Source: an uncultured Acidobacteriota bacterium (GTDB taxonomy: Bacteria > Acidobacteriota > UBA6911). Taken from it: a stretch of DNA of 64,000 nt. Below, in pieces: positions 30,533 to 64,000 of the stretch. Position numbers and translations under genes: made by a program. The stretch covers positions 96,001 to 160,000 of the forward strand of contig CAWJKZ010000009.1 of the NCBI GenBank assembly GCA_963843575.1, written 5' to 3'. How positions within the stretch are numbered: position 1 is the stretch's first letter; each line of letters begins with the position of its first letter. A model generated the notes under the pieces. That model saw only the letters and a list, made by a program, of their open reading frames with translations. It had not been told where the DNA came from and searched no databases.

Positions 30533-31990
30533 TCAGGGCTGCCTCGCCATGGAGCGGCGGCCGGGAGCTGGGTAGTTCTTCGCCACATCATCGAGAACAA
30601 GTACCCAGTCGTGACCTATCCCTCGCGTCGGCGGTTGAAAGCGCGCCTTTCCCGTGTTCGGGAAAACGCCGATTTCGGTTGCAGAGCCATCGCGAGGATT
30701 GAACCACCAACCCCTCAGACTGGCGCCCGAAATCCCCCCCATGTTCAAATCGATCACATTTCCCCCGGTCGAATACACAAACAGGTAGTCGGAGCCTTTA
30801 GTTGCCTGTAACCGGTCGTTAAAAGTCAATGGATCGGCCGCAAGCATGGTTTGGTCGGGAACGCGCATCAACATGGGTCTGGATTCGACCAACCGCCGCA
30901 GGTATTTCATCTGCAACGTACCGGGCCGGTTCAGCGCCTCCTTCCAGTGAGCCGCCGCGATACCGGCATAGGGTTCCACGCTCGGGGACAACAGCAGCAT
31001 CACGCTGAGCTCGCCATAAATGTGTCCGAACGCCCCGGCGAAAACGGCCCAGTAAGCGCGCTTCCGCACGTCGAAGTCTGTTGCCTCGCGATGTCCATTC
31101 CGAATGTGGTTCGGGAGGTTTTCGTACCACGGTTCAGCGTCCAGTACGGGCTTGACCGGCTTTCTATCGTAATCTGCGCTGATCGGTTCGTAAGCAGGGA
31201 CGTCGCTTTGACCCGTCTGGTGCATGTTGAAATCCAGCCAAGGATCATCATGGAACCAGGTAGAAGAGGTTGCACGGCCCGGAGGATGGAAGCTCATAAG
31301 CAGTTTCGTGTAGTCCTCGCTTCCCGAGACTCCGATCGCTGTTCCCCTGGCCATCTTCCGATGAATGCCAAGATGATCCGGGCTATGGTCGGGGCGAATA
31401 TCGCCTCCCATTATCCAAATGATATTGTCGAAGCGGCCGAAGCGTTCGCCCCAGTGACGTGCCACAGACTCACAGTTTTCCGCTGTGACTCGCCCGTCTT
31501 TGCGTCCGCCTTTCAGATGCCATGCTGAGTAAATGGGATTCAGGGCGACATACATTCCCCGGACCGCGGCCTCCTGGAGAAAGAACTCCACATGATCCCA
31601 GAAGTCGTACTCTTCGGGGTTGTCCGGGTTGTTCCCCTTCGTGACGAGCGGCCTGGTGAAGTCGTTGTTCACGTACGGCATGTCACCATATGCATTCGGG
31701 CCTTCCCCTCCCCTTTCCGAAATACCGGAGAGAAAGATCAGGTTGAATTCGTTCGCGAGACGATTGTCCAGGTAATGGATGATTTCCTCCCGATTGAGCA
31801 GATGAACGAAAGTCCACACCGTGTCTCCCAGCAGGAACACAGGCGATCCGTCTGAAGCACGGACCACGTACCGTCCGTTATCGGAGACCTTCAGATTCGT
31901 TGCCGAGGGAGTTTGTTGCGCATCCGAGGGCAGCACAAGACAGGCCAGGGTTGCGGCAAAGACCAGGACGACTATGCTCTTCTTTCGCAT
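30533..31990 (-). CDS. Secreted DUF4038 / GH140 apiosidase-like hydrolase #1
   Basis: Signal peptide. LKVSDNGRY..FLLGDTVW, IIWIMGGD, KPVLDAEPWYE, AYWAVFAGAFGHIYG, WWFNPRDG...DWVLVLDD. Confidence 0.88.
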   Translation of the reverse strand: MRKKSIVVLVFAATLACLVLPSDAQQTPSATNLKVSDNGRYVVRASDGSPVFLLGDTVWTFVHLLNREEIIHYLDNRLANEFNLIFLSGISERGGEGPNAYGDMPYVNNDFTRPLVTKGNNPDNPEEYDFWDHVEFFLQEAAVRGMYVALNPIYSAWHLKGGRKDGRVTAENCESVARHWGERFGRFDNIIWIMGGDIRPDHSPDHLGIHRKMARGTAIGVSGSEDYTKLLMSFHPPGRATSSTWFHDDPWLDFNMHQTGQSDVPAYEPISADYDRKPVKPVLDAEPWYENLPNHIRNGHREATDFDVRKRAYWAVFAGAFGHIYGELSVMLLLSPSVEPYAGIAAAHWKEALNRPGTLQMKYLRRLVESRPMLMRVPDQTMLAADPLTFNDRLQATKGSDYLFVYSTGGNVIDLNMGGISGASLRGWWFNPRDGSATEIGVFPNTGKARFQPPTRGIGHDWVLVLDDVAKNYPAPGRRSMARQP

Positions 31991-32418
31991 TGTGTTTCCT
32001 TTCCGACTGGCCCGCGCATGGCGAGACCCAAGAGAGTTGACTTCGTCGTTCAGAGGACCGACAAGGATGAGGCCACATCCTCTTGATGGGGGAGGGAAGT
32101 TTCCTGCGGTCAAAAGCAGGCGGGGCGTGACGCCGACAAGCGCTCGTGAGGGCGGGGGCCGTCCGTAAGAGAGATAGGAGGTCTCGGCAATCCGCAGCCT
32201 CTGCTACTTTGAACCACTGGTAACCGAGGTCCAGCAGCAACCTTTCCCTCCAGGATACTCCGTGTATGTTCGGTGCAAGGTCAACCATCAGCTCGCGCCG
32301 AATCAGGTTCAGGGTCTGCGGTATTCGTGAGGTCTGATCCAAACGAAGCAACTGCAGCCTTTTCCGGCGGATTCGAGATGACCGGATTCGTGCCGCCTGA
32401 GCCTTGGATTTGAGAGTT

Positions 32419-33879
32419 CTACCGCTCATGTTCAGGACTCAAGTTGCTCAAAGAATCCTCAATCCCGATCCGGCCGGAACGTGCTGCCTTCAGGGCGACG
32501 ACTACGTCGGTCATCGAGGTTTCCGCTCCGACGTTTCCGGGGAAGACGATATAGTTCATCCCGGGGAAGCGCGAGCCTGCGCCAAGGTGCCAGACCGGAA
32601 CGCCGGGAATGATCTGCCCCGCAACGACTGCCCTCTGAACACCCAGGGCCTTCGCCGCGATGTCGTTTGATGTGATGCCCCCTTTCGCAAGGATATAGCG
32701 GGGCTCGGCAGAAACACCGCTCACGGTCTCGATAAGGGCTGCCGCGACGCCGGCCTGCATCCGGATGCTCTCCTCCGCCGTCTCCCCCCTCACCAGCTCG
32801 CGGCTAGTGTAGATCACCGTATCGCGATTGCCATGCATGGCCTGGTTCACCCCTTTCGTCACCCTCTCGATCTCGACCTTCCTGTCGCCGGAAAAGAGCC
32901 GACTGACGTCCAACTCGACCCCGTGAACGCCGCCATGCCTCAGCAGGTGCATCAGCTGGCGCGTAGACATGGGCACGAAGGAGCCGACGACGACGAGGCC
33001 ACAAGCTCTTTGCACAGCAGGGAAATCCGATGAGGTTAACAGCGGGCGAGGAGTAAGACCGATGAGCGCCGGTATCAGGGCGGCGGCCGTCCGGAAGAGG
33101 AACCGCCGCCCCTGCTTCATAGCCCGGAAGACGGCCAGCGCGACGACATCCATGTCACTTCGCTCGCAGGCGTTGACGACGCAGAAGCTGCCGTCCGGAA
33201 ATCCTCCAAGTTTCCTCGCAACAATTCCTGGGCCTCCCTTGCGGATATCGTCCAGGGAGACGGAGCAGACATCCTCCCGTGCGACGGCGCCCCCGGTCTT
33301 CTCACAGACGTAGTCTCTCAAGTTTGAAAACGTGAAACCAAACGAGGGATCCTTTGCATAGGGGGTATCGGCCGCGGGGACCAATACGTCTCCGTCCTTC
33401 ACGTAGTGGATATCGTCGATAGTAAGACGTCCCCCCTCGAAGAAGGCGGGCACGCAGAGCGTCACAGCATTCTGCCACCCGAATTCCGCCTTCAGAGTAT
33501 CGATCTCGACTCGGAAGTGGCCGCGCAGCGTCGAGTCGCTGCGGCTCATGACCATGAATCGCCGGTTCGCTCGTGATGCGGCCTGCACCATGTTTCGGGC
33601 AACGTCGCGGTTCAGCGCCGCGGCCTCGGGGGCGGGCAGGCTTCTGCTGTTCGTGAGAATGAAAAAGACCGGGCTGCGCTCGAACTCCGCCGCCAGGACC
33701 TCGACAGGCCAGGCCGTGAGAATCGGGATGTCGTGGACGGTCTGACATCCCGTCGGGTCGTCGTCCATGATGACCAGCGTCGTATCGGCCTCGGCGAAAG
33801 CCTCACGGATCGACGGAACCAGGTCTTCCCTCCAGGGAGCCGGGAGGCTGCGCATGATTTCGGAACAGGGTATTCGCAT
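32419..33879 (-). CDS. Four-carbon acid sugar kinase family (DUF1537)
   Basis: DDDPTGCQTVHD, LTNSRS, SRSDSTLRGH, PAFFEGGR.T, AKGGITS, FPGNVG. Confidence 0.92.
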   Translation of the reverse strand: MRIPCSEIMRSLPAPWREDLVPSIREAFAEADTTLVIMDDDPTGCQTVHDIPILTAWPVEVLAAEFERSPVFFILTNSRSLPAPEAAALNRDVARNMVQAASRANRRFMVMSRSDSTLRGHFRVEIDTLKAEFGWQNAVTLCVPAFFEGGRLTIDDIHYVKDGDVLVPAADTPYAKDPSFGFTFSNLRDYVCEKTGGAVAREDVCSVSLDDIRKGGPGIVARKLGGFPDGSFCVVNACERSDMDVVALAVFRAMKQGRRFLFRTAAALIPALIGLTPRPLLTSSDFPAVQRACGLVVVGSFVPMSTRQLMHLLRHGGVHGVELDVSRLFSGDRKVEIERVTKGVNQAMHGNRDTVIYTSRELVRGETAEESIRMQAGVAAALIETVSGVSAEPRYILAKGGITSNDIAAKALGVQRAVVAGQIIPGVPVWHLGAGSRFPGMNYIVFPGNVGAETSMTDVVVALKAARSGRIGIEDSLSNLSPEHER

Positions 33880-33995: not shown

Positions 33996-34013
33996 AGGTA
34001 AAGGAGCTCAGCA

Positions 34014-35333
34014 ATGTCCCGAAAGCGGATTCGCACCATCGTTCCTGTCGTGCTTCTGGCCTTCATGGGCGCGGTCACAACGGCGGTTGCCCAGACGGGC
34101 GTGTCGTTTCCCCTGCGGGTCAGCGAGGACAGAAGACACCTGGTCGACAGCAGAGGCGTGCCGTTTTTCATGAACGGCGACAGTCCATGGGAGATCAGCT
34201 GGCAGCTGACGAAGGAGGAAGCCGAAGCCTACCTTGAAAACCGGCGCCAGAAGGGGTTCAACACGGTGCTTGTCGACACCGTCCCGTACACCGAGTGGTC
34301 CGACCATCTCACCCAGACAAACCGCTACGGACATGCCCCCTTCCCGAGTACCGGGGACCTCGGGCAGCCCAACGAAGCGTACTTCAGGGATCTCGACGCG
34401 GTCGTCGAGGCTGCCGCCAGGAAAGGCATGCTGGTCCTGTTGTGCGCGGCGGATCTGGGCTCCAGCGACATGTGGCGGCCGCAGTACATCTCGAGCGGGG
34501 TGGCGAAGTGCGGCGAGTATGCCCGTTTCCTCGGCCGGCGCTTCAGCCGGTTCGACAACATCCTCTGGGTGCTCGGAGGTGATCGCGACCCTCATGGAGT
34601 CTTTGCCCATGTGGAAGAGATGGCCAGGGCATTGAGGGAGACGGCGCCGAAACATCTGATCACCTATCACGCGGGGGCGAAATCGAGTGGAATGTTCTTT
34701 CAGCCAGCGGATTGGTTCGATGTGAACATGTCCTACGGTTACCGCGACCCGCACGGCTTCGTGTCCGAGGACTACAAGAGAACACCGGTAAAGCCGGCCT
34801 TCCTTGGAGAAAGCGGATACGAGGGTGAAAACCTGGACGGGAGAGGCGGCAGCCCCCACCGCGTCCGGCGGCAGGCCTACTGGTCGGTTCTCTCCGGGGC
34901 GTTTGGCCACCTTTACGGTTCGGCGGCCTGGACGATGAAACCGCTCTGGAAGGACTGGATGGATTCGCCCGGCGCATTCCACATGTCTCACCTCGGCGCG
35001 TTTTTCCAATCGCTGCCCTGGCACAAACTTGTCCCCGATTTCGGGCGCAGCGTGATCGTCGAAGGCAACGAGGAGGGGAGCACGGTGGCGACTACGGCGC
35101 GGATACCCGACGGCAGTCTTGCGGTCAGCTACCTGCCGACGCCGCGGCGCGTCACTGTCGACCTTTCCCTGTTCAACGGCAAAGTGGAGGCGCGCTGGTT
35201 TGACCCGACCTGCGGGAAATACTTGCCGGTTGCCAATTCGCCGTTTGAAAACAAAGGCAGCCGCACCTTCACCACCCCCGAGAAGAACTCCGCCGGGGAC
35301 GGCGACCTCGTCCTTGTCCTTTCGGCTCTGTGA
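34014..35333 (+). CDS. Secreted DUF4038 apiosidase-like hydrolase #2
   Basis: FPLRVSEDRRHLVD..GVPFFMNGDSPW, ILWVLGGD, KPAFLGESGYE, RRQAYWSVLSGAFGH, WFDPT. Confidence 0.88.
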   Translation: MSRKRIRTIVPVVLLAFMGAVTTAVAQTGVSFPLRVSEDRRHLVDSRGVPFFMNGDSPWEISWQLTKEEAEAYLENRRQKGFNTVLVDTVPYTEWSDHLTQTNRYGHAPFPSTGDLGQPNEAYFRDLDAVVEAAARKGMLVLLCAADLGSSDMWRPQYISSGVAKCGEYARFLGRRFSRFDNILWVLGGDRDPHGVFAHVEEMARALRETAPKHLITYHAGAKSSGMFFQPADWFDVNMSYGYRDPHGFVSEDYKRTPVKPAFLGESGYEGENLDGRGGSPHRVRRQAYWSVLSGAFGHLYGSAAWTMKPLWKDWMDSPGAFHMSHLGAFFQSLPWHKLVPDFGRSVIVEGNEEGSTVATTARIPDGSLAVSYLPTPRRVTVDLSLFNGKVEARWFDPTCGKYLPVANSPFENKGSRTFTTPEKNSAGDGDLVLVLSAL

Positions 35334-35367
35334 CAAGAACAAAAGCTTATAGATACGCTCACGTTCC

Positions 35368-35498
35368 CAGAACGCGGATTTGCGCTGATTCACGCGGAAG
35401 TTGACTCGGTGACAGGCCGCGCCCGGCATTCCTCCCGCGAACTGCCGGGTGCGACAGATCCGCGTAAATTCGTAAAATCCGCGAAAATCCGCGTTCTG
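35368..35498. repeat. REP-like inverted repeat (ACGCGGAT units)
   Basis: CAGAACGCGGATTT / AAATCCGCGTTCTG perfect 14-bp IR with internal 9-10-nt periodic units, between convergent genes. Confidence 0.7.
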
Positions 35499-35560
35499 CT
35501 GTTTTAACCGGTGGCCAGCTCCATCCCAAGAATTCGTTAGCGTGTTCATGAAATCGGGTA

Positions 35561-36826
35561 CTAAGAACGCATCGTTGCGTTCTTCACCAATGGGCGGGCG
35601 CGGACACCCAGGAATGCGATGTACGCCAGCGGCAGGAAAAGCACGAGCATTCCGGCGCGCAGGCCTGCCACGTCCGCAATCCTCCCTATGAGCACAGGCC
35701 CAAACGCTCCGCCGACGGCGCTGGAAAACAGTATTCCCATGAGCGCTCCGTGGTGCTTCTCCAGCGAATTGAGTGCGAGCTCGGCGATGAGCGGCCACAG
35801 CACGGAAAGGAAGAGTCCGACGAGCGGAAAGAAGATCAGTGCCATCGTTCTGTTGCCCAGGATCGCGCAGGAGAAGCATCCCAGCGCAAGCAAGCTGGAG
35901 ACCGTCACCACGCGCCGGCTTTCGAATATTTTGATTAGCAGCATTCCCCCCGCGCAGCCGGCCGTAAGCAGAGTCCAGAACCACGACAGCGTTCTTGCGC
36001 CCGTGGTTTCGGGGTCGCAGCCGTGGTATGCCTTCAGGAACTGCGACATCCAATTCGCGTTACCCTGCTCGCAAGCCGAATAGCAGAGAACGCCGCAGAC
36101 GAAAAGCAGGACGGTAGGGTTCTTCAACAGCCCGAGATAAACCTGGAGCGAACCGGCACGTTCCTCTTCCGTCAACTGCACGCGGGGAAACTTCACGAAA
36201 ATCAGCACGCCAATAGTCACAGCGAGCACGGCCGAGAAGATCCAGTATAGGGAAACCCAGTTGAACGATCCCTGCACCAGCCTGCTCAAGCCTTTGCCTA
36301 CAAGGCCCCCGCTCCCGGGGGCGGCGAGCCTCTGAACCGCCATCGAGTAGACGTGAGGGCTGAGCATCGAGCCGAGGCCGTACATCATATTGGTCAGCAC
36401 CGTGAAAAACGCCAGGTTCTCGCCTCCGCACGCGCTCTTCAGCAGGGGATAGAGCGGTATCTGCCCGGCAGCCAGCCAGCAGCCCACCAGGAATAATGAA
36501 ATCAGCACCACCGGATATTGGGGCCGTATTGCGAACGAAAAAGTCCCCGCGAACGCCAGAACGAAGGAGGCAACGACAACCTTTTTGGCCGAGAGCTTCT
36601 CGGTAAGGATGCCGGCGGGAATGGAGATTACGCCGAAGGCGATGAAATAGGAAAAAGGGAGCAGGGCAGCGAGCGTGTAGCTCAGACGCAGATCCCGGAT
36701 CATGTCCGGCAGCAGGGCCCCGACTGCATTCGCGATGACCCCTGTCTCGAACAGTATGCAGTTCAACAGCACTACGACGAAGTAGTTAATCCGCGGTTTG
36801 GGCGCCGCCGCTGGCAATGGGTTCAT
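35561..36826 (-). CDS. MFS sugar transporter (FucP-like)
   Basis: About 12 TM segments. LLPFSYFIAFGVISIPAGIL, CEQG.ANWMSQFL, SVLWP, VGGAFGP. Confidence 0.88.
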   Translation of the reverse strand: MNPLPAAAPKPRINYFVVVLLNCILFETGVIANAVGALLPDMIRDLRLSYTLAALLPFSYFIAFGVISIPAGILTEKLSAKKVVVASFVLAFAGTFSFAIRPQYPVVLISLFLVGCWLAAGQIPLYPLLKSACGGENLAFFTVLTNMMYGLGSMLSPHVYSMAVQRLAAPGSGGLVGKGLSRLVQGSFNWVSLYWIFSAVLAVTIGVLIFVKFPRVQLTEEERAGSLQVYLGLLKNPTVLLFVCGVLCYSACEQGNANWMSQFLKAYHGCDPETTGARTLSWFWTLLTAGCAGGMLLIKIFESRRVVTVSSLLALGCFSCAILGNRTMALIFFPLVGLFLSVLWPLIAELALNSLEKHHGALMGILFSSAVGGAFGPVLIGRIADVAGLRAGMLVLFLPLAYIAFLGVRARPLVKNATMRS

Positions 36827-37001: not shown

Positions 37002-37236
37002 GATAACCGGCGTCAGCAGATCTACTACCTTCGCTGGGGCGATCCGCAATACCGGGGAGACAGTCCCATGAATCGAAGACGTTTCCTTGAGCCCCGGGGG
37101 GGGCGGAACCGTAATCCTTCCCTTCGGGCCGCGCTTTTCCCGGCCCCGCCGTCCTGTTCTGTTCAACCCGTAAACCCGGCTCGCGAGAGTGCCTTGCAGG
37201 CATGCCACAAAAACCAAGAATTCACGAGGGATCAAC

Positions 37237-38652
37237 ATGTTCGGGAAATTACTCGTCCTGTTGCTGGCCGCGTCCCCGGCGATTGCCGGTCCCGCATATC
37301 CCCTGAAGGTGAGCGCCAACAAGCGCTACCTGGTCGATCAGCGAGATGTCCCGGTGTTTCTCAACGGTGACACCGCGTGGTCGCTGATCGCGCAGGTCTC
37401 CAAGGAAGACGCCGAGCTCTACTTGCGTGACCGCGCCTCGAGGGGCGTCAATTCGATAATCGTCACCTCTCCCGAGGTCTACTACTGCAGCAACTGCCGG
37501 GACAAGGACGGTCCTCAGAATTTCTACGGCGACAGCCCGTTCAACAAAGTCAACGACTTCACCACTCCGAACGAGGCTTACTGGAAGCATGCCGACTGGG
37601 TCATCAGGAAAGCAGCCGAGTACGGCATCCAGGTCCTGCTCTGCCCCTGCTACACCGGCTTCCAGAAGAACAAGGACGGCTGGTGGACCGACGACTGGGA
37701 GAAGAGGAATTCCGTCGAGGACTGCGCCTGGTATGGAGGCTGGGTCGGTAAACGCTACCGGGACTTTCCGAACATCGTCTGGGTGATGGGAAACGACCGG
37801 AACCCCGGCGAGTTGTTCGGCAGAATCGACGCGATGGCCAAAGGGATCAGGTCGGAGGACGCGAATCACCTGTTTACCCATCATTCGCGCAGCGGTATGT
37901 CGTCAGCGGATCCCGCCGTTTGGGCGCCGCAGCCGGTTCCGTCCTGGCTGACACTGAACGGCACCTATGACTATCCAGGCGATGCGGCGCCGAGCGACTG
38001 GATGTACGTCAGATCCTACGCCGACTACAACCGCAACCCGGTAATGCCTTTCTACCTGTTCGAGTCGCATTACGAATACGCCAAGAGTTGGGGCAACGGC
38101 ACGATCCAGGGAATCCCGCTCAACGTCAGAAAAGAGGCCTACCAGTCCGCCTTCTGCGGTTCGACCGGGCACCATTACGGGAACAACGCGATCTGGGGAA
38201 TGAATTCCGTGCCCGATTATCAGCCGGGCTGCGACCTGCCGTGGAAGGAGCATTTCAAGGATCCCGGTACGTCGGTTCTTTTCATAGGGAAGCTGTTGAA
38301 CTCCAGGGCTTGGCACACCCTCGTGCCCGACCAGGATCACACGGTCATGACCGCCGGCTACGGTTCCGGGAGTTCCTACGCCCCATGCGCCAGGACTACC
38401 GACGGTGCGACGATGATGGCGTTCATTCCAGACTCGCGTTCTGTGACCATCGACATGGCGAAGATTTCAGGTAAAGCAGCCAAGTGCTGGTGGTTCAACC
38501 CGCGTTCAGGCGAAAGCCGTCCCATCGGCGACTACCCGACTTCCGGCAAGAAAGACTTCCGTACGCCGGACAACAACGACTGGGTGCTGGTCATCGATGA
38601 TGCGGCAAAGAAGCTCCCGGCCCCCGGCGCAACCCCGAAGGGGAAGCAATAG
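37237..38652 (+). CDS. Secreted DUF4038 apiosidase-like hydrolase #3
   Basis: YPLKVSANKRYLVD..FLNGDTAW, IVWVMGND, PFYLFESHYE, WWFNPRSG, DWVLVIDD. Confidence 0.88.
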   Translation: MFGKLLVLLLAASPAIAGPAYPLKVSANKRYLVDQRDVPVFLNGDTAWSLIAQVSKEDAELYLRDRASRGVNSIIVTSPEVYYCSNCRDKDGPQNFYGDSPFNKVNDFTTPNEAYWKHADWVIRKAAEYGIQVLLCPCYTGFQKNKDGWWTDDWEKRNSVEDCAWYGGWVGKRYRDFPNIVWVMGNDRNPGELFGRIDAMAKGIRSEDANHLFTHHSRSGMSSADPAVWAPQPVPSWLTLNGTYDYPGDAAPSDWMYVRSYADYNRNPVMPFYLFESHYEYAKSWGNGTIQGIPLNVRKEAYQSAFCGSTGHHYGNNAIWGMNSVPDYQPGCDLPWKEHFKDPGTSVLFIGKLLNSRAWHTLVPDQDHTVMTAGYGSGSSYAPCARTTDGATMMAFIPDSRSVTIDMAKISGKAAKCWWFNPRSGESRPIGDYPTSGKKDFRTPDNNDWVLVIDDAAKKLPAPGATPKGKQ

Positions 38653-48611: not shown

Positions 48612-48628
48612 AAGGAAGGAGATCTTCG

Positions 48629-52411: not shown

Positions 52412-52425
52412 ACAGCACCTCCGAT

Positions 52426-53963: not shown

Positions 53964-54848
53964 TCAAACCCCGGCAGTCGTCTTCTCCATACTGAGCACC
54001 ACGCCGGCCAGGATGGCGGCGACGATGCCGGTACCCCTGAGCAAATCGATGGATTCCTGGAACAGCGGCACCGCCGCGAGGACTGTGATGACCGGGTACA
54101 GCTGCGAGTAAGGAGTGACTATGCTCGCCTTGCCGTTCCTGTAGGCGGCAAACATCGTCAAAACCCCTCCTCCCATCAGCACGCCGATAACCAGACTCAG
54201 CCAGCCGGCCCGCACCGGGATGTCCCAGTCCAGGCTCGTGTCAGTGCAGGACAGAACGAGCGCGAGCACGATGAACGAACCCGTGAACGCCACCGTCGAG
54301 AGCTCTTCGGAAATGAAGTAGGTGGCGCCTTTCTGGGTGAGAAAGGTCAGCCCGAAAAGTACGAGCGATGCGACGGTGTACATCATCCAGGTGGACCGGA
54401 ACCCTGAACCGGCCTCTTGCGGTGACGACGGTGTCGCATTCAGCAGGACTATGGCGACCAGGGCCGCAACTATGCCGAGAGCCTGTATGCCGCGGATCCT
54501 TTCGTTGAACAGAAAAGGGGCGGCAACCACCGGTACGAGAGGGGCCAGGCTTATGATCGGGAACACCAGGGAAGCCGGGCCGTCGTGACCCAGGGCGTCG
54601 TAGAGCAGGATGTTTCCAATGCCGCCCATGAGGCCGGTCGCAGAGGCCAGAAGCAGTCCTTTCCAGAGGTGTGTGAACTTCCTCACCTTGGGAGAAAACA
54701 GGAGTGCGATCGCGACGGGTACGAGCCCCGCAGTCGACATGATCTGGATCATGACACCGGACATATCCCGGCTCACGAGCGTCGAGAGCAGGCTCCAGAC
54801 GGCCCAGATCAGCATTGAAATCGTCGCATACACAAACCACTTCGGCAT
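53964..54848 (-). CDS. EamA/DMT family transporter (tandem paralog)
   Basis: Same architecture. Shares MPKW, QK.ATY.IS.ELSTV and QLYPVITVLAA with its neighbour. Confidence 0.9.
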   Translation of the reverse strand: MPKWFVYATISMLIWAVWSLLSTLVSRDMSGVMIQIMSTAGLVPVAIALLFSPKVRKFTHLWKGLLLASATGLMGGIGNILLYDALGHDGPASLVFPIISLAPLVPVVAAPFLFNERIRGIQALGIVAALVAIVLLNATPSSPQEAGSGFRSTWMMYTVASLVLFGLTFLTQKGATYFISEELSTVAFTGSFIVLALVLSCTDTSLDWDIPVRAGWLSLVIGVLMGGGVLTMFAAYRNGKASIVTPYSQLYPVITVLAAVPLFQESIDLLRGTGIVAAILAGVVLSMEKTTAGV

Positions 54849-56342: not shown

Positions 56343-57618
56343 TCATGGCGGCAGGACGACAGGCTGAACCAGATATAGGTGCAGACCACGAGGCCGGCTG
56401 CGGGCGCGAGCAGGGAGATCACTCGCTCCGACCGCAAGCCGGTATCGCCGCCAGGAGCGCAAGAGAGCCGAAAGGTTCACAAAAATGAAACCCAGGCAGG
56501 CACCGAAGTTAACGAACTGCGCCGCCTCGTCCAGGTTCATCACCAGAGGCCCGAGCGCCGAAAGCGCGCCCAAGAGAAGCACGGAGTACAACGGCGTGTT
56601 CAGCGTCGGGTGGATATAGCTGAATATCCTGCGCGGTAGCCGTCCCTCGCGCGCCATCCCGAACAGGAGCCTGGAGGCGCTGGCCTGGCTCGTGACGGCG
56701 CTGGTGAAGGCCTGGCCGACCACCAGCGCCGCTATGGCGGCGAAGAGTGCCGGGCCGCCGACGATCCGTCCGATTTCGCTGAACGCTGTTTCGGACGCGG
56801 GGATCTGGCGCCAGTCCGGACCAGCAAGCGCCCCGAGATAGGTCAGCAACGTGAATGTGCCGCCGCAGATCAGGCACGTGGCGATGGTCGCGAGCGGCAC
56901 GTCGCGCGGTGCGTTCCTGGCATCCTCCGCCAGCGTGGAGATGCCGTCGAATCCCAGGTACGAGAGCACGGCGATTGCGAATGCCGAGCGCGTCGCTCCC
57001 GAGGTCGAAATCCACCGGATTGAAGAACGGCTTGAACGAGACCAGCGTGCCCGCACCGGTGCCCGACAGCAGGGAGGTGATCGCAGCCACGACGAACCAG
57101 ACGACCGACAGGGCGAGCACGATCGTCCAGATGATCGTAAAACGCGCCGTGACCTCGATCCCGCGCAGGTTGATCGCGGTGATGAGAGCGGCCCACCCGA
57201 TGACCCACGCCCAGTGGGGCACCGACGGGAGCGAGCCGTCCCACGGTGGCGCTTATGATCACGACCGAGATGATCGGCATCAGGACATAGTCGAGCACCA
57301 TGGCCCAGCCCGCGAAGTAACCGGCGATCGGGTGCACTTCGGCAGAGGCGTAGGCATACGCCGAACCGGCATTCGGATGCGCTCGGACCATCCTGCCGTA
57401 ACTGATCGCCGTGAACACCATTGCGACGGCGGCGAGCACGTAGACCAGACGCGAAATGACCGCGCGAGTTCGCCGACACCGATCCCGAACATGGCGTAGG
57501 GGGCCGTCGGCCCCACGAACGCGACTCCGAAAAACGTCAGCGCCCCGAGACCGAGGACCGGACGGAAGGCCGGGCTGCCGGTCTGCGTCGAAGCTGTGCT
57601 CTTCCCGCGATCCGCCAC
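56343..57618 (-). CDS. APC-family amino acid/polyamine permease (multiple frameshifts)
   Basis: LGLGALTFFG, FTAISYGRM..AGSAYAYA, GYFAGWAMVLDY, LSYLGFDGISTLAED, ASRLLFGMAR, NFGA. Confidence 0.85.
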
Positions 57619-57621: not shown

Positions 57622-58644
57622 TCACACCCTCACGGTCGATCCGGCCGCCGACGATTCGTAGCAGAGTTCCAGCAGCTTGAGGGTCTTTATGTTGTCCTCC
57701 GCGGTGGTCTCCGCCTCTCCTTCGCCCCGCAGGGCCGACAGCAGGTCCCGGTGGCAGTCGACGATGCTCGACGTGCTCACTTCGTACGCCGGATCACCCC
57801 ACGAGTAGCGCACGGGCGGGTGGCGGCGCGCATGGGTCCCGTTAGCCGTGGTGACCCGGATCCAGTAGTCGGGCGCGAGTTCCGCCGATCCGCGCTGCCC
57901 TTCGACAAAGATGGACGTCTGAATGTAGTGATCGCGTTCGACCGGGATCCGTGCCAGCGCGACCTCGATGACCACGGTCATGCCGCTCTGCATGCGCATC
58001 ATGATGGTCGCCATGTCCTCGCCCTTTATGTCGGGCTGGACCTTCGTTGCATGGCAGTAGAGCGTTTCCACCTCGCCGAACAGGAACCGCGCCGTATCCA
58101 GGAGATGGACGCCGGTGTCGGCCAGAAGGAGACGTTCCAGCTCTTTGAGAAAGGGCTGATTCACGTAGTCGTCCACGCCCGAGATCAGGCTCAGAGTGGC
58201 CCGCGCAGGGCGGCCGATGTCACCCGAATCCAGAACGGTCTTGAGCGCCCTGATAGGCGTCTGCCAACGCCAGTTCTCGTGGATGAGCAGCGGAACGCCT
58301 GCGGTCCGGCACGCGTCCATCATGTCCTCGCACTCGGCGAGGGTCGGCGCCATCGGTTTCTGGCAGATGACCGGCAGCCTGCGCGCCGCCGCGAGCTTGA
58401 CGAAGCGGCCGTGCGACGCGTTGTCGGTGATGATGTCGATGAAGTCGACCTGTTCGCGGTCGAGCATCGCTTCCGCGTCGTCGTACACTGCCGGGATCCC
58501 GAACCGCGCCGCCAGCTCCTCCGCCTTCGATTTCGTTCTGTTGTAGATGGCCACGCAACGGGCGCCCGGTATTTCCTTCCACGCCCCGATCTGGAACTGC
58601 GCCCAGAAACCGGCCCCCAGGATCGCAAACTTCAGTTCTGACAT
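57622..58644 (-). CDS. Gfo/Idh/MocA oxidoreductase, D-apiose dehydrogenase (ApsD)-like
   Basis: GAGFWAQFQ..AW, ICQKPMAP, HENWRWQTPI, QP.L....R....D.GVHLLD.ARF, IKGED.AT resemble ApsD as I recall it. Confidence 0.8.
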   Translation of the reverse strand: MSELKFAILGAGFWAQFQIGAWKEIPGARCVAIYNRTKSKAEELAARFGIPAVYDDAEAMLDREQVDFIDIITDNASHGRFVKLAAARRLPVICQKPMAPTLAECEDMMDACRTAGVPLLIHENWRWQTPIRALKTVLDSGDIGRPARATLSLISGVDDYVNQPFLKELERLLLADTGVHLLDTARFLFGEVETLYCHATKVQPDIKGEDMATIMMRMQSGMTVVIEVALARIPVERDHYIQTSIFVEGQRGSAELAPDYWIRVTTANGTHARRHPPVRYSWGDPAYEVSTSSIVDCHRDLLSALRGEGEAETTAEDNIKTLKLLELCYESSAAGSTVRV

Positions 58645-59801
58645 GCGCTTCTCTCCAAAGGGTAGCGACCGTGACGACGCACCGCCTTGGCCATCGACAC
58701 GATGTTCTCTGGCGGAACGTCCGGCTGTATGTTGTGGACCGAGGCGACGACGAAACCTCCTCCGGGACCAAGATCGAGTATCCGCCGCCGGACCTCCGCC
58801 TCGACGTCGGAGACAGACCCTGAGGGGAGCACCTTCTGGGTGTCGATGCCGCCCCAGAACGTTAGGCGGTCGCCGAATCGCGCCTTGAGTGCGGCAGTGT
58901 TTCCCATCGCCGAAACCTGAACGGGGTTGATCGCGTCGACGCCGATCTCGATCAGATCATCGAGCAGGCCGGTGATGTTGCCGCAACTGTGATAGAAGAC
59001 TTTCGCCTCCGTCTTCGATTTGACGAAATCGAAATAACACTTGTACACCGGCTTCAGCAACCGCCGGAACGTCGAAGGAGACATCAGGAGGCCCTGCTGC
59101 GTGGCGAGATCGTCGGCGGTGCGGAACACCTGGATATAGCGCCCTGCGGCTGCCAGGAACCGACCCGTGCCGGCGGTGTTGATTTCGAGCAGCTTCGACA
59201 TGAGCGCTTTGATGAATTCCGGGTTCTCCGCGACGTCGATGAGGATCCGCTCGAAACCGCGCATGATGAAGGCGAGCTCCCAGAAACTCTTGAATCCGCC
59301 GTCGGCCATGATCGCATAGGGTGTGTTCTCGTAAAGCGCGCGCGCCTCGTCGGCCACTCCCGCGGTGAAACCCGGATCCAGAGGGTCGGGCCAGGGATAC
59401 CGGTCGATGTCTGCGATCGTTGCTTCCGCCAGCGGGTGCCCGACGGCCTCCCAGTAGTACGCGTCGTCGGAATAGAACACTTGCTTCCAGGTGACGCCCC
59501 AGGGATCGATGTTCGTGCCCGGTGGAGAGGGCGGGGGTACCCAGGACGATGGTCCTCTTGAAGTAAGGGCGCGGGTGTCGCTGCCGAGGCGCACGGCGAC
59601 GGACTCGTCGACGCGCACGAGGCGGAACGTGTCGTCCATCATCTGCGTCGGGGCGGCGATGCCAAGGTGCTGCTTCAGGCGCTCGTAACCTTCGGCGAGG
59701 ATCGTCGTGCTGTAGCCCCCGCCGATGTCGATGGGCACGCGGTCCGGTTCCCGGTGGTTGAGGGCACGCATCACTCTTTCGCGCGGCGTCATCTCGCCCA
59801 T
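58632..59801 (-). CDS. Uroporphyrinogen decarboxylase family protein (MtaA/CmuA-like)
   Basis: MTPRERV..ALNHREPDRVP, DDLATQ...LMSP, FYHSCG, INPVQ, FWGGIDTQ, GPGGGFV..SVHNIQ.DVPPEN. Confidence 0.9.
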   Translation of the reverse strand: MGEMTPRERVMRALNHREPDRVPIDIGGGYSTTILAEGYERLKQHLGIAAPTQMMDDTFRLVRVDESVAVRLGSDTRALTSRGPSSWVPPPSPPGTNIDPWGVTWKQVFYSDDAYYWEAVGHPLAEATIADIDRYPWPDPLDPGFTAGVADEARALYENTPYAIMADGGFKSFWELAFIMRGFERILIDVAENPEFIKALMSKLLEINTAGTGRFLAAAGRYIQVFRTADDLATQQGLLMSPSTFRRLLKPVYKCYFDFVKSKTEAKVFYHSCGNITGLLDDLIEIGVDAINPVQVSAMGNTAALKARFGDRLTFWGGIDTQKVLPSGSVSDVEAEVRRRILDLGPGGGFVVASVHNIQPDVPPENIVSMAKAVRRHGRYPLERSACQN

Positions 59802-59993: not shown

Positions 59994-61379
59994 CTACCGT
60001 TTGGGGGCTTCCAGGATCAGGACCCAATCGTTGTCACGGGTGCCATTGTCCCCCGGGGTGACGAATTCCCGAAGTCCAGCATTCGGAAAAGGCGAATCCG
60101 TTATCCGTGTGAAGCTGCCCGTGGCGGGACTGAACCATTGCGCCGTCACCTGCCCGTGCAACCGGCTCATGTCGATGCGGAGCGTGCGGGTGGCGGCGTT
60201 GGTGGGGGGCACGTAGGCCATTACGAGACCGCCGTCGGCCGAACGGGCCGCTGTTACATAGTCCGCCTGCTCGAAGACGCCATACCCGGCGGTGACCGTT
60301 TCATGGTTTTGATCCGGAACCAGCATGTGCCAGGCACGCGACGCAAATATGGACGCCAGCCGACTCATGTCCCCGTTCGCAGGAGAGCCGACGCCGTTGG
60401 GGCCGTCCCAGCCGGGGCGGAAGGGCCAGACCGGATGGTTTCCGAAGAAATGACCGGCACAACCGCTGAGAACGGCCCAGTATGCCTGACGCCGCAGCCG
60501 GCCGCGATCGGACGTGTAAGTACCGCCGTACGTCGAACCGGTAAGATCCTCGTACCTGGCCTCGATCAAGTAGTTGGGTCTTGCGTCACGGCGATTGTAT
60601 TCCCTGAGAGACATCTTGTACGGCTCGTCCGGCGTCCCTCTTCGGCCGAGGTCGTCTCCCGTGTAGACGCCATTGAGTTGCAGGTACGGGGCGAACTTCG
60701 CGTGATCGAGTGAGGTCGTCGATCGGACTCCGTGGTAGCTGTGGAGCTTGTCCGGGTCCTGCTCTTTGATGCCGAGCAGGATCTCGAGCGCATGGGACAC
60801 GCCGGCGGTGTTTTCGGGCGGACTGTAGTCTCCCCCATGCACCCAGATGATGTTCGTGAAATTCCGATAGCGCCCGCCCAGGAAGCGCCCGTATTCGCGG
60901 GATTTTCGCGCGCCGTTCGCGTTGAGTTCTTTCCAGAATCCCTCGTCGCCGCCTCCCACTCCGAAGTAGCAGGGGAAGAGAAAGACGAGTATGCCGTTCT
61001 CTTCGGCTTTCCGGAGCACCCAGTCCGCATGCTTGAAATAGCGTTCGCTCGGCGTGGAAAAGTCGCCGGGAGTGAGAAACGGTCCCACGCCTTCCAGGTT
61101 ATTCGGGGGATTGTCGGCGAACTTGTGCTCGAGGAGATTCACTATCAGAGCGTTGTAGCCAGACCTCGCCCTCTCGGCCAGGTACCGTTCCGCGTCCGCC
61201 CTGTTGAGTTGCACCAGCAGGGACCATGCCGTATCTCCGTGGATGAAGAAAGGGGAGCCGTTCCTGTCGACGAGATACCGGTGATCGGCACTCAGCTTCA
61301 CCGGCAGCCTCGGGGCGGTCGGGGGATGGGACAGTGCGAGGCCGGCGTATACCGCGAAGAGGAGCACAAGGGAGTTCAT
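59994..61379 (-). CDS. Secreted DUF4038 hydrolase #8
   Basis: LPVKLSADHRYLVD..PFFIHGDTAW, IIWVHGGD, YLIEARYE, RRQAYWAVLSGCAGHFFG, DWVLILE. Confidence 0.88.
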   Translation of the reverse strand: MNSLVLLFAVYAGLALSHPPTAPRLPVKLSADHRYLVDRNGSPFFIHGDTAWSLLVQLNRADAERYLAERARSGYNALIVNLLEHKFADNPPNNLEGVGPFLTPGDFSTPSERYFKHADWVLRKAEENGILVFLFPCYFGVGGGDEGFWKELNANGARKSREYGRFLGGRYRNFTNIIWVHGGDYSPPENTAGVSHALEILLGIKEQDPDKLHSYHGVRSTTSLDHAKFAPYLQLNGVYTGDDLGRRGTPDEPYKMSLREYNRRDARPNYLIEARYEDLTGSTYGGTYTSDRGRLRRQAYWAVLSGCAGHFFGNHPVWPFRPGWDGPNGVGSPANGDMSRLASIFASRAWHMLVPDQNHETVTAGYGVFEQADYVTAARSADGGLVMAYVPPTNAATRTLRIDMSRLHGQVTAQWFSPATGSFTRITDSPFPNAGLREFVTPGDNGTRDNDWVLILEAPKR

Positions 61380-61397
61380 CCGTATAATCCAATGGCG

Positions 61398-61439: not shown

Positions 61440-61445
61440 AGTGGA

Positions 61446-64000
61446 CTAGAAGATGGCCTTGAAGACCATCTGGACCGAGCGCATCGGGTAGAAACTGCTC
61501 GCCCGCGCAAACGAGGCGGACGTCAGCGATGCGGATGCTCCGGAAATATTGACGTGGTTCAGGATGTTTGATGACTGCAGCTGGTACTGCAGCGCAAGCC
61601 GCTCGCCAATGCGGAATTTCTTCCCGAAAGACAGGTCGAAGCGGGTGTAACCCGGTCTGTGGAAGTTGTTCCGGGGAAGTGTGCCGATGCGGATGTCTCC
61701 CGCGCTGGGAAGCGGGAAGATGCTCGCGCTCATGGCGCCGTTCATCCATTCAGACTTGCTGAAGGACGTGGGCACATTCGAGGTCGGCATATCGGGGCGG
61801 TCGCTGCGCTGCCCGTCGGCATTGAAGTCGCCGCCGTCGCCGTACCTGGAACCCGTTGTGGGGTTGAAGTATGGCCCGGACTCGATGTTGGCGATCCCGG
61901 AGAGCTGCCATCCTCCGAGGAATGTGCCCACCACATCGTTGCGTCCGCGGAACATGGGGAGATCCCACACCGCGTTCATCTTAATGCCGTGAGTAGAGGA
62001 CTCGTCGCGTGCCCAATCCAGTTCAGGATGGAACACTTCGGTGACGCCGCCATAGTTGGTGCGGCCATTGTGGTAGCTGTAGGAACCAGTCATTTGCCAT
62101 CCGTGGGCCAGTCGTTTGCTCAGCTCAAAGACCATGCCGTGGTAGATTCGCCGGCCGCCATTGTAATTGAGGTTGATCGAACCGTAGTGCGGGTTGATTC
62201 GATCGATGTTGCCGTCGAGGAGATCCCCGGATACCCGGTTGGTGTTATACGAAAGAAGATCGTTCGTGGACCGCCGGTAGTGATAGGCAACGGTGGCGGC
62301 CAGGTTCGTCAGGACCTGCCGCTGATAGGCGACGTTTACATCGTATACGGTCGGGGAAGCCAAGTCCCTCGCGTAGCCGGTGATCGTCGGCTGCGTGCCC
62401 TCGAATACTCCCCAGTTGGAGTCTATCCCGGGTCCGACAAGGTTGGGATTGATAGGGAAGTTCCGTGTCCCTTCCGGTGCGATGCCGTAGACGATGGGGA
62501 TCCCGTAGTCGGGTCCGGCGTTGAGCGTCGACGAGATGGGCGGGTTCCCGTAGAAGTTGCGGTAGAGGTTAAGGGAGTTGAATTCGTCATGCAGCAGGAA
62601 CAGCCCGGCGCGGATCACATTCTTACCCGTGCCTTTGGGATCCCACGCCATGCTGATCCGCGGGCTGAAGTTATTCAGGTCTTTGTCGAAACTCGTGGTA
62701 ACGGGCTTGTTCGCTACCGTTGTGACCCCCTGCGGATTGACTTGGCTATTGGTAAAGAGCGGGCCGTAGGTATCTCTCGGCTGCTGCATGCCGTCGAGTT
62801 TGTGGGGAGCGTAATAATCCCACCGGAGGCCGAGGTTCAGGGTCAGGCCGTGGCGTACCTGCCAGGAGTTCTGTGCGAAAAACGAAAGCTGCATGTTCCT
62901 GGCTTCCACGAACGGGTTCCTGAGCTCACCAGTTGCCGCGTCGACACTCCTGATCTCCGAATACGGGTTGTCATTGGCAAAGTCAATGGCACTCGCAAAC
63001 GTGTAGGCCGGAGTGTCGCCGTACAGGTAAGCCGGGTCGGTCAGATAGACGCGACGCCAGCTGCCGCCGAATTTCCAGGTCTGCGCCCCGCGGTTCCACG
63101 AGAAGGTGTCGTTGATCGAGTATACTTTCGCATCCTGGACCTCATAGGAGTAGCTGCACGCACCGGAGAACGTAGACGGGAAGCTGATACCGTCTTCGGT
63201 CTGGATACAGGGGACGTTGTACCGGTCCTTTTTGAACCGCCAGTCCCAGTTCGGGCCGTGCATTCTCGAGAACCGGAGTTCGTTCAGGGCGCTGGTTGTG
63301 AACGTGCGGACGTAGGCGAGGCTGACAAGGTCAGCCCCGGTCTTTTGCGCGTAATCCATGGTCGGGCGGACGTCCAGCTGGCTCTGATCGTTCCGGGTTC
63401 TCCAGAACGAGCCGTAAATCCTGTCTTTTGCGCTTCTGCTCTGGTAGTCCGCGCGACCGTTGTACTGGTTCCCCTGACGGTCGCTCGGGCGATCCATCGT
63501 GATCGTACCGATGTCCATGATTCCGTCATTGTTGAGATCGACCAGGTTGCGATCCGCATACTTGAAGGGGGGGTCGCTCGCCATCACTTTGGCGGCAACT
63601 GAGTTCGGACTCTTCGAGGTCACCCAGTCCTTGAACGCCTGCGTCTCCACGATGACATCCGAACCGCCGGGAGCCGATCTCTGTTCGCGCAAGCCTTCAT
63701 AGGCTCCAAAGAAGAACAGGCGATCCTTGATGACGGGGCCGCCAACCGTGCCGCCAAAGAAACGCTGGTACCAGGGGCCGACGTCTTCGGCCTTCGCGTT
63801 AAATGGCAGAGCGTTGAAGGTGTCGTCCAGGAAGGTGAAATGTCCGGTGCCGTGAATGTTGTTGGTGCCGCTCTTGGTCACCATCTGCACCTGGACGCCG
63901 CTGAGAATCCCTTCCTCCGCAGAGGTGGGGTTGGTGGAGACACGCATTTCTTCAACGGCATCAGGATTGGGGGTAAAGGCCAGGTTCCAGGAGGTGGCGT
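61446..64000 (-). CDS. Oar-type TonB-dependent receptor (5' part beyond window)
   Basis: VTKSGTNNIHG, FGGTVGGPVIKDRLFFF, FAQNSWQV...LTLNLGLRWDY, NNFSPRI, C-terminal RSVQMVFKAIF. Confidence 0.92.
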   Translation of the reverse strand, partial: ATSWNLAFTPNPDAVEEMRVSTNPTSAEEGILSGVQVQMVTKSGTNNIHGTGHFTFLDDTFNALPFNAKAEDVGPWYQRFFGGTVGGPVIKDRLFFFGAYEGLREQRSAPGGSDVIVETQAFKDWVTSKSPNSVAAKVMASDPPFKYADRNLVDLNNDGIMDIGTITMDRPSDRQGNQYNGRADYQSRSAKDRIYGSFWRTRNDQSQLDVRPTMDYAQKTGADLVSLAYVRTFTTSALNELRFSRMHGPNWDWRFKKDRYNVPCIQTEDGISFPSTFSGACSYSYEVQDAKVYSINDTFSWNRGAQTWKFGGSWRRVYLTDPAYLYGDTPAYTFASAIDFANDNPYSEIRSVDAATGELRNPFVEARNMQLSFFAQNSWQVRHGLTLNLGLRWDYYAPHKLDGMQQPRDTYGPLFTNSQVNPQGVTTVANKPVTTSFDKDLNNFSPRISMAWDPKGTGKNVIRAGLFLLHDEFNSLNLYRNFYGNPPISSTLNAGPDYGIPIVYGIAPEGTRNFPINPNLVGPGIDSNWGVFEGTQPTITGYARDLASPTVYDVNVAYQRQVLTNLAATVAYHYRRSTNDLLSYNTNRVSGDLLDGNIDRINPHYGSINLNYNGGRRIYHGMVFELSKRLAHGWQMTGSYSYHNGRTNYGGVTEVFHPELDWARDESSTHGIKMNAVWDLPMFRGRNDVVGTFLGGWQLSGIANIESGPYFNPTTGSRYGDGGDFNADGQRSDRPDMPTSNVPTSFSKSEWMNGAMSASIFPLPSAGDIRIGTLPRNNFHRPGYTRFDLSFGKKFRIGERLALQYQLQSSNILNHVNISGASASLTSASFARASSFYPMRSVQMVFKAIF

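Follow-up and report, generated by a model that had tools for sequence, protein, structure and literature searches.

Why should genes for vitamin B12-dependent methyl transfer lie among genes for secreted glycoside hydrolases? The question is raised by a 64,000-nucleotide (nt) stretch of the genome of a soil acidobacterium (G000:C9:96001-160000; hereafter the window, whose own numbering is used for plain coordinates below). Between positions 30533 and 64000, two methyltransferases of the MttB superfamily and a corrinoid protein are interspersed with eight genes of glycoside hydrolase family GH140 (PF13204, also known as DUF4038). An earlier note, made from the letters of the window, had proposed that these two sets of genes form one catabolic system, and all of the protein families it listed for this region were recovered in place by Pfam scanning and translation. 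We put the probability at roughly one half that this is a glycan or glycoside utilization island whose corrinoid methyltransferase would demethylate a methylated (amino)sugar or sugar acid.

The argument begins with the methyltransferases. MttB1 covers positions 27-490 of the 500-position PF06253 profile in one open reading frame (ORF) that has no in-frame stop codon at the pyrrolysine position, and MttB2 spans the same profile in two frames. A genome of the same genus (G001) carries the same locus at ~90% DNA identity, and its MttB1 is 96% identical with 0 indels. Among 119 database matches to MttB1, 95 are 48-97% identical and the remainder at most 37%. In a tree of 46 rows (quick search, midpoint root), the clade occupies 21 rows with a support of 100 in the Shimodaira-Hasegawa-like approximate likelihood-ratio test (SH-aLRT). 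By these sequence comparisons, the two window MttBs are a distinct clade of the MttBs that lack pyrrolysine (non-Pyl MttBs). The window MttB reaches 331 bits against the model for Pyl-type trimethylamine methyltransferases (TIGR02369), whose cut-off is 525 bits, and members of the clade are ~30% identical to the solved MtgB and MttB proteins. No fused MttB forms of 897-2560 amino acids were found at E <= 1e-60, which is weak evidence.

What the clade acts on can be approached through its best-studied relatives. The available text of the published sources names glycine betaine, proline betaine, carnitine, gamma-butyrobetaine, and choline as known substrates of non-Pyl MttBs, and the available part of PMC13080624 gives Y97, R312, H348, and F356 as the glycine-betaine-binding residues of MtgB. 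A phmmer alignment to 9yce places S117, E333, a gap, and I375 of MttB1 at these four positions. Because the betaine-binding residues are changed, another substrate is expected and glycine betaine is an unlikely one for MttB1. On chemical grounds, a methyl group on a quaternary nitrogen would be favored over one on oxygen, because we know of no way in which non-Pyl MttBs activate poorer leaving groups.

Other components of a methyl-transfer system are also present. The corrinoid protein beside MttB2 matches the MtgC-type model at 209 bits and the pyl_corrinoid model at 193 bits, both below the cut-offs, and a different part of the genome encodes a RamA-type corrinoid reductive activase (G000:C25:135198-138025; PF14574, 206 bits). 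About 2 kb from this activase gene is a further corrinoid protein gene, whose product shares 56% identity with that of the window. Corrinoid MttB systems operate in aerobes too, as the available text on the aerobic MtgBCD of Ruegeria reports (PMC12478193).

If the methyltransferases and the hydrolases belong together, their genes should keep company elsewhere. Loci for comparison (labeled L0xx; L048 denotes the 17 kb of the source contig past the window end) were fetched with an alignment of MttB clade members. Species-representative genomes supplied 35 loci, including 24 with the clade from 14 assemblies (Chloroflexota 8, Acidobacteriota 2, Planctomycetota 2, Actinomycetota 1, Spirochaetota 1), and metagenome contigs supplied 80 further loci. 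Loci with at least 1 kb in common at 95% DNA identity were merged, which left 42 groups with the clade and 59 with other MttBs.

GH140 genes occur at 8 of the 42 clade loci and DUF6298 genes at 5, and at least one of the two at 12; neither family occurs at any of the 59 other-MttB loci. The same absence from all 59 holds for genes of the ApnL family (D-apionate lactonase; 16/42), for the alpha and beta subunits of E1-type thiamine diphosphate (ThDP) enzymes (11/42), for GntR regulators (7/42), for class IV aminotransferases (AT4; 6/42), and for DSD1-type pyridoxal phosphate (PLP) enzymes (5/42). SDR genes accompany the clade in 16 of 42 loci and other MttBs in 4 of 59, whereas corrinoid protein genes are about equally frequent in both sets (12/42 versus 19/59), as expected. 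Spacing is close: 7 of 9 loci have a GH140 gene on the strand of the clade MttB and within 700 nt of it, and 13 of 17 have an ApnL-like gene within 1 kb of it. The earlier note had named beforehand, as what would speak against its proposal, a lack of co-occurrence of methyltransferase and hydrolase genes in other genomes. They do co-occur (12/42 versus 0/59) and are closely adjacent, and its view that the hydrolase and B12 methyl-transfer sets belong together is borne out. Within the source genome, the four other MttB loci provide a control, and none of them has GH140, ApnL, DSD1, AT4, or E1 genes nearby.

Family membership, gene order, adjacency, and recurrence across lineages are all directly observed. 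Four unrelated, acidobacteria-like contigs illustrate the recurring orders, with Corr denoting the corrinoid protein and GFO a Gfo/Idh/MocA oxidoreductase:

L060: GH140-EamA-TonB receptor-DUF6298-DSD1-ApnL-MttB-Corr (receptor 56% identical to that of the window)
L063: GH140-gluconolactonase-GFO-Dak1-DSD1-EamA-ApnL-MttB-GH140-GFO
L055: ApnL-FGGY kinase-..-GH140-x-GH140-MttB-SDR-GH27-GH2
L026: ApnL-FGGY kinase-..-GH140-Rieske oxygenase-GH140-MttB-SDR

These contigs carry the MttB2 type at 67-71% identity, and in metagenome contigs MttB2 homologs of this identity adjoin ApnL, GH140, and SDR genes. The orders thus recur in contigs with proteins that share only ~40% identity with those of the window. 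In L026, the gene between the two GH140 genes upstream of the clade MttB encodes the alpha subunit of a Rieske ring-hydroxylating oxygenase (L026:7346-8527; matching ORF, L055:7432-8598), which could be a second, O2-dependent demethylase of the same operon.

A DUF1537 kinase 76% identical to that of the island lies next to MttB and ApnL in L065, an APC permease 62% identical lies beside SDR, MttB, and ApnL in L062, and EamA transporters (40-52% identity) flank the clade in L032, L033, L060, and L063. GFO homologs (64-65%) neighbor it in Planctomycetota loci, SDR homologs (53-71%) in other phyla, and AT4 homologs (52-62%) in loci of Chloroflexota, Actinomycetota, and Spirochaetota. Partners in Chloroflexota and Actinomycetota comprise GntR, Corr, ApnL, SDR, E1 alpha/beta, AT4, and split transketolases that share up to 75% identity with those of the island. 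Next to the clade, loci of other phyla have transporters of the sugar-type ATP-binding cassette (ABC) class (Peripla_BP_4, SBP_bac_1), not BCCT or betaine-binding proteins. Chloroflexota and Actinomycetota loci also have genes for DMFA2_C (N,N-dimethylformamidase-beta-like), a Peptidase_S15 hydrolase, and Peripla_BP_4 near the clade MttB (L016:18824-21124, L016:12390-14315). From these associations, we consider it an even bet that methyl transfer is functionally coupled to a carbohydrate-derived substrate.

The source assembly (G000) comprises 6.68 Mb in 27 contigs and is 88% complete. Reading frames in the window were picked by GC content at third codon positions (the GC3 heuristic) and then subjected to Pfam scanning and translation. 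The island spans ~50 kb, from 30.5 kb of the window to ~81.5 kb, and so extends ~17 kb beyond the window end at 64000. Its 25 genes within the window are as follows:

30533-32113, minus strand: GH140_1; PF13204 at 276 bits with a C-terminal PF12904 domain at 92 bits; signal-like N-terminus from an internal Met
32419-33879, minus: kinase of the DUF1537-type four-carbon acid-sugar family; Pfam SBD_N and NBD_C
34014-35333, plus: GH140_2; PF13204, signal-like N-terminus, GGD and GE..YE motifs
35561-36826, minus: MFS transporter resembling glucose/galactose or fucose permeases; 63 bits to the gluP subfamily, below cut-off
37189-38652, plus: GH140_3; PF13204, first gene of a plus-strand run
38710-39870, plus: DSD1-type PLP enzyme; Ala_racemase_N and D-ser_dehydrat, BhcC-like in NCBIfam at 243 bits versus a cut-off of 690
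39903-41381, plus: MttB1; PF06253 at 246 bits, ORF open from 39843, probable start Met at 39903
41413-42195, plus: SDR, by Pfam
42227-43183, plus: class IV aminotransferase (BCAT, D-amino-acid, or R-amine type); NCBIfam 256 bits versus a cut-off of 363
43361-44999, minus: GH140_4; DUF5060, divergent PF13204 of the "NE" type, and PF12904, in two frames (frameshift)
45034-46050, minus: ThDP E1 beta; NCBIfam PDH E1 beta subfamily at 383 bits, 96% identical in G001
45999-47070, minus: ThDP E1 alpha; two frames, probably decaying
47132-48611, plus: MttB2; same clade as MttB1, frame change near 47850
48629-49264, plus: corrinoid (B12-binding) protein; GDLHDIG (DxHxxG) motif
49505-50948, plus: GH140_5; divergent "NE" type, two frames
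51034-52504, minus: GH140_6; two frames, signal-like N-terminus
52426-53016, minus: fragment of a D-2-hydroxyacid dehydrogenase (2-Hacid_dh); piece of the catalytic domain, profile positions 31-102 of 134, without a match to the NAD domain
53013-53936, minus: first EamA transporter, by Pfam
53964-54848, minus: second EamA transporter, by Pfam
54891-56270, minus: GH140_7; PF13204, signal-like N-terminus
56343-57618, minus: APC amino-acid-type permease; only the C-terminal half in frame, profile positions 190-375 of 427
57622-58644, minus: Gfo/Idh/MocA oxidoreductase (GFO), by Pfam; candidate sugar 1-dehydrogenase
58632-59801, minus: URO-D/MtaA-CmuA family protein; HxC motif (HSCG), 63 bits versus an NCBIfam cut-off of 235, candidate methylcorrinoid methyltransferase (MT2)
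59994-61379, minus: GH140_8; PF13204, signal-like N-terminus
61446-64000, continuing to 64886, minus: TonB-dependent-type outer-membrane barrel (OMP_b-brl_4) of 1146 amino acids; head of the minus-strand run

Genes of the two strands are closely interleaved. The plus-strand run GH140_3-DSD1-MttB1-SDR-AT4 has gaps of 58, ~32, 32, and 32 nt. The minus-strand run proceeds from 64000 to 51034 in the order receptor, GH140_8, MtaA-like, GFO, APC, GH140_7, EamA, EamA, 2-Hacid_dh, GH140_6. Two long ORFs, one of 681 amino acids (34008-36053, minus) and one of 317 (48362-49315, minus), were rejected as genes, as they overlap real genes and have no family match. An Rfam scan of the window and L048 gave 0 matches, and no cobalamin riboswitch was seen there.

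The hydrolases are as unusual in number as they are in company. All eight match PF13204 at 44.7-276 bits (gathering cut-off 26.5), and this ~33 kb stretch holds 9 of the 12 places in the genome where the profile matches, one gene being split; such clustering in the island is far beyond chance. The earlier note had counted eight secreted enzymes. The number stands, and a signal-like hydrophobic N-terminus, judged by eye, was seen in seven of them; three of the eight genes are read in two frames. The proteins are only 25-38% identical to one another, and several specificities are therefore likely among them. The solved structures that match them best are those of apiosidases (8t9w, 3kzs/5msy), with GH140_2 matching the 8t9w "Apiosidase" at E 2.8e-43. 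The available text of PMC4032388 places the catalytic residues of BT_1012 at Asp187 and Glu284, and the corresponding columns here were assigned to this numbering by motif rather than by direct alignment to 3kzs. Six GH140 genes retain the G(G/N)D column, which reads N-E in GH140_4 and GH140_5. All six genes that are readable at the xE..YE column retain it, and the second site of GH140_4 and GH140_5 lies past the frameshift.

Past the window end, the island continues with the following genes:

65232-67286: first split transketolase pair (N/C); generic transketolase models, below cut-offs
67264-69360: second E1 alpha and E1 beta, the latter frameshifted
after the second E1 pair: xylose-isomerase-like TIM protein (AP_endonuc_2), by Pfam
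70225-71454: E2 acyltransferase, by Pfam
71547-72227: GntR/FCD regulator, by Pfam
between GntR/FCD and the second split transketolase: class III aminotransferase, by Pfam
73781-75612: second split transketolase pair (N/C); generic transketolase models, below cut-offs
after the second transketolase pair: IolO-like epimerase, then an Asp/Glu-racemase-like protein
77438-77647 (G000:C9:173438-173647): third MttB, a remnant of ~70 residues with one in-frame TGA, immediately upstream of the ApnL-like gene
77814-79745: ApnL-family (D-apionate lactonase) protein of 644 residues
79818-81545: DUF6298/GH140-like gene

The ApnL-like protein covers positions 3-593 of the 595-position model NF049900 (E 4.9e-95) at 319 bits versus a cut-off of 750, and its Atlas feature score to the PF25837/PF25838 clusters is 0.99. 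At the place corresponding to the third MttB, G001 has a longer copy that is also split. Three L048 ORFs of 479, 207, and 258 amino acids were set aside as antisense artifacts that are Arg-rich and have no family match; the coding genes at that place are E1 alpha, AP_endonuc_2, and E2 on the plus strand. The genome has a second ApnL-family gene (G000:C12:229184-232000; 322 bits to NF049900) that is directly followed by a paralog of GFO, 57% identical to that of the window, with no MttB nearby; the two form a candidate dehydrogenase-lactonase pair. Copies at L066:549-1240 and L067:6734-7420 share 76% identity with the second E1 alpha of the island. In these loci E1 alpha, E1 beta, the TIM-barrel protein, and E2 are arranged as in the island, and GntR, Corr, and MttB come next. 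This conservation is unusually high given the very different base composition of the low-GC L066 and L067 contigs (GC 0.43-0.45).

The region upstream of the island has features of its own. Two copies of an IS110-family insertion sequence (IS) element, each 1736 nt long and encoding a 384-amino-acid transposase, lie at 13942-15677 and 24098-25833; they are 100% identical, inverted in orientation, and 8420 nt apart. The first copy is flanked by a Ser/Thr kinase-PD40 gene (12031-14070) and an ORF with PD40 repeats (15720-16631) and may have split one gene, and an ORF for a DDE-type transposase (22793-23800) lies between the copies. GC content dips to 0.55-0.57 over 24-30 kb, immediately ahead of the island. 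A second TonB-type receptor of the OMP_b-brl_4 family (4445-7159, minus strand; 904 amino acids) occupies a position unrelated to the island.

How might these proteins work together? The substrate, the order of the steps, and every activity in the following pathway we infer from sequence. The TonB-type receptor would import an oligosaccharide or glycoside, from which up to eight secreted (periplasmic) and anciently diverged GH140 hydrolases would release unusual sugar units, and MFS, EamA, and APC carriers would bring these units into the cell. GFO or the SDR would oxidize the sugar to a lactone, which the ApnL-family lactonase would open to an aldonic acid. The MttBs may then move one or more methyl groups from the sugar-derived substrate to the corrinoid protein, and the MtaA-like protein would hand the methyl on to an acceptor. 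Should the substrate carry an amino group, deamination would fall to the DSD1-type enzyme or to one of the aminotransferases (class IV, class III). The DSD1-type family acts on D-beta-hydroxy-alpha-amino acids, a group to which 2-amino-aldonic acids belong. Finally, the DUF1537 kinase would phosphorylate the skeleton, and the ThDP enzymes (E1/E2 and the split transketolases) would cut it. The earlier note's picture of a branched-chain, N- or O-methylated substrate that undergoes deamination and C-C cleavage is one that the family names suggest.

Several observations weigh against this interpretation. In the available text of the published sources, all characterized non-Pyl MttBs use small quaternary amines and none uses a sugar. 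No island protein reaches an NCBIfam equivalog cut-off, and the corrinoid, MtaA-like, and ApnL-like proteins are all below theirs. Of the 25 window genes, seven are split over two frames or fragmentary (GH140_4, GH140_5, GH140_6, E1 alpha, MttB2, 2-Hacid_dh, and APC). As for the co-occurrence counts, 30 of the 42 clade loci have neither GH140 nor DUF6298 in the DNA examined, and the contrasts between 42 and 59 overstate independence, as the compared loci are akin to one another, the control loci come from other taxa, and the lengths of compared loci are unequal. Gene calls rest on the GC3 heuristic and on tblastn searches with island proteins at 30-35% identity. Clade loci of Chloroflexota, Actinomycetota, and Spirochaetota usually have the aminotransferase, E1, and SDR genes without GH140. 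Because the clade lacks GH140 in most other phyla, the hydrolase link is lineage-restricted. The clade is also sparsely distributed: it was found in 0 of 400 other sampled Acidobacteriota genomes (E <= 1e-90, at most three candidates scored per genome), and among 60 relatives, matches of at least 50% identity occur in the same-genus genome only. The MttB-clade system is thus a rare, accessory trait, and it has probably spread horizontally.

Of the competing explanations, the one that survives best is that the island houses two independent pathways with no common substrate, a quaternary-amine or amino-acid-betaine route and a GH140 glycan system. In the amine route, MttB, the corrinoid protein, and the MtaA-like protein would demethylate, the aminotransferase, racemase, and DSD1 would act next, and E1/E2 would then decarboxylate. 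We consider this arrangement rather improbable, though not negligibly so. It accords with the small quaternary amines handled by the characterized non-Pyl MttBs in the available literature, yet the betaine-binding residues of MtgB are not kept in MttB1. The window does encode an APC amino-acid-type permease, but the transporters near the clade in other phyla are of the sugar ABC type and not BCCT or betaine-binding. Eight loci (L014-L017, L021, L023, L029, L030) combine the clade with AT4, E1 alpha/beta, and Corr and lack GH140, and the extension of the island holds E2, racemase-like, and class III aminotransferase genes. Against this stand the GH140 genes that directly adjoin MttB, on one side or the other and in the same orientation, in 7 of 9 loci, the ApnL genes within 1 kb in 13 of 17, and the absence of sugar-type partners both from the 59 control MttB loci and from the four other MttB loci of the genome.

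A second explanation concerns the state of the genes. The island could be a decaying remnant that is idle as a whole in this organism or, conversely, its disruptions could be assembly errors in genes that are intact in the cell; either seems quite unlikely. The seven disrupted genes invite this view, as does the ~70-residue stub of a third MttB beside the ApnL-like gene, and IS elements lie 5-17 kb upstream of the island, but there is no disruption in five of the GH140 genes, in the transporter and receptor genes, in GFO, or in the gene for the MtaA-like protein. Indels relative to G001 cluster in E1 alpha (14 small ones) and MttB2 (7), most of them outside homopolymer runs, and E1 alpha is only 68-71% identical in amino acid sequence to its G001 copy, whereas its neighbors are 96-98% identical. 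Over the 4.5 kb of DSD1-MttB1-SDR-AT4, in contrast, there are 0 indels, and the proteins are 90-98% identical. The locus was found in only two contig sets from soil metagenome sequencing runs (shares of 0.07 and 0.06), as short, low-depth pieces, and no RNA run was among the listed matches. One such independent contig, itself short, repeats the G001 indel pattern at 46926-47038. The bin at 47725-48041, which contains the MttB2 frameshift, has zero cover in the independent read sets, and an assembly error is possible at that site. On balance, the disruptions look more like real decay than random assembly error, with the MttB2 break lacking independent cover, and the system is partly decayed in this genome.

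The third explanation brings in known sugar catabolism. The D-apiose routes of Carter et al. 2018 reportedly comprise ApsD, ApnL, ApnO, OiaK, and a RuBisCO-like protein (RLP) decarboxylase/transcarboxylase, besides an AptAB transketolase route. Like these routes, which are outlined in section 2 of PMC13753588 in its available text, the island unites GFO, an ApnL-family lactonase, a DUF1537 kinase, and split transketolases. Unlike them, it adds methyltransferase, aminotransferase, DSD1, and E1/E2 genes, and its matches are all below equivalog cut-offs. The earlier note had called GFO "ApsD-like" and compared the kinase with OiaK. Both assignments hold at the level of the family and go no further, as the best NCBIfam matches are IolG for GFO (108 bits, cut-off 355) and D-threonate kinase for the kinase (82 bits, cut-off 450). 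It had also seen no AptAB-like gene and concluded that the route was not canonical. The window indeed contains none, but two split transketolase pairs and the ApnL-family lactonase lie 1-16 kb past its end, which that reasoning overlooked; there is no RuBisCO-like protein in the genome (0 PF00016 matches; 88% complete), unlike in the D-apiose oxidative pathway. No island ORF was named ApnO in NCBIfam scans, although no ApnO-specific model search was made. That the island is an ordinary D-apiose or rhamnogalacturonan II (RG-II)-type locus, with apiosidases, ApsD, ApnL, an OiaK-like kinase, AptAB-like enzymes, and merely incidental methyltransferase genes, is very unlikely: the apiosidase-like hydrolases, the full-length ApnL match (E 4.9e-95), the DUF1537 kinase, GFO, and two split transketolase pairs speak for it, but RuBisCO-like matches are absent, no ApnO candidate was recognized among the scanned ORFs (with no search aimed at it), ApnL scores 319 of 750 bits, the kinase matches threonate/tetronate kinases weakly, many amine-handling enzymes have no role in apiose routes, and the MttB association is recurrent rather than incidental.

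The island has parts in common with each known system and is a member of none as a whole. With the MttB-superfamily systems (MtgB/MtgC for glycine betaine, MtpB, MtcB, MtyB, and that for choline) it shares a full-length PF06253 TIM-barrel that lacks pyrrolysine, a DxHxxG corrinoid protein next to it, a candidate for the second methyltransferase, and a RamA-type activase in the genome. It differs from them in that its MttBs form a separate clade, ~30% identical and changed in the MtgB binding residues, that its candidate MT2 is URO-D/MtaA-like, and that glycoside hydrolases, a sugar lactonase, a sugar kinase, and ThDP enzymes take the place of betaine transporters as neighbors. The GH140 apiosidase BT_1012 belongs to the RG-II utilization locus of Bacteroides thetaiotaomicron. 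Like that locus, the island has the PF13204 plus PF12904 architecture, kept catalytic Asp and Glu residues (given for BT_1012 in PMC4032388), and a linked TonB-type importer. Unlike it, the island has eight diverged GH140 paralogs instead of one, an acidobacterial OMP_b-brl_4 receptor, and embedded genes for methyl transfer and amine handling. No SusD-family Pfam match was found among the island ORFs scanned, unlike in the SusC/SusD polysaccharide utilization loci of Bacteroidota.

Porphyran is said to be demethylated by a P450 enzyme that acts on 6-O-methyl-galactose, depends on O2, and releases formaldehyde. Corrinoid transfer in the island would instead keep the methyl group and need no O2, and a methyl ether is only one possible substrate here. 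Porphyran utilization (PMC9400963, available text) is the nearest concept, being a demethylation step inside a polysaccharide utilization system. The earlier note had not recognized the island's combination of genes as described, and no description was found in print. A literature search that did not include supplementary files found no publication tying MttB to apiose, and the combination is apparently undescribed. Publications naming MttB together with glycoside hydrolases were, by title, general surveys, and none of those listed was on the link between them. Searches on methylated-sugar or cobalamin demethylation and on ApnL found nothing relevant to this system.

What would be new here is the recruitment of a distinct MttB clade into glycan and sugar-acid catabolism, a proposition that we regard as evenly poised. 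More tentatively, and with the odds against it, the clade may be the first branch of the superfamily in carbohydrate catabolism, a cobalamin-dependent, O2-independent demethylase of methylated sugars, amino sugars, or aldonic acids that the GH140 enzymes would free from complex plant, moss, or microbial glycans. In practical terms, the partner set of MttB, corrinoid protein, ApnL-like lactonase, SDR, and DSD1-type enzyme would help to assign functions to the many uncharacterized proteins of the GH140, DUF6298, and ApnL families. If the clade does serve in glycoside-hydrolase and sugar-acid operons, the substrate range of MttB proteins would be widened beyond small quaternary amines, and a sugar methyl ether as the donor would be a new reaction type for the family. 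The fate of sugar methyl groups is little understood apart from 6-O-methyl-galactose and its P450 route, and many such groups on plant and microbial sugars would gain an O2-independent one. Vitamin B12 would be linked to complex-glycan turnover in soil and, if the clade demethylates carbohydrates, methyl groups of polymers would enter the one-carbon (C1) pool.

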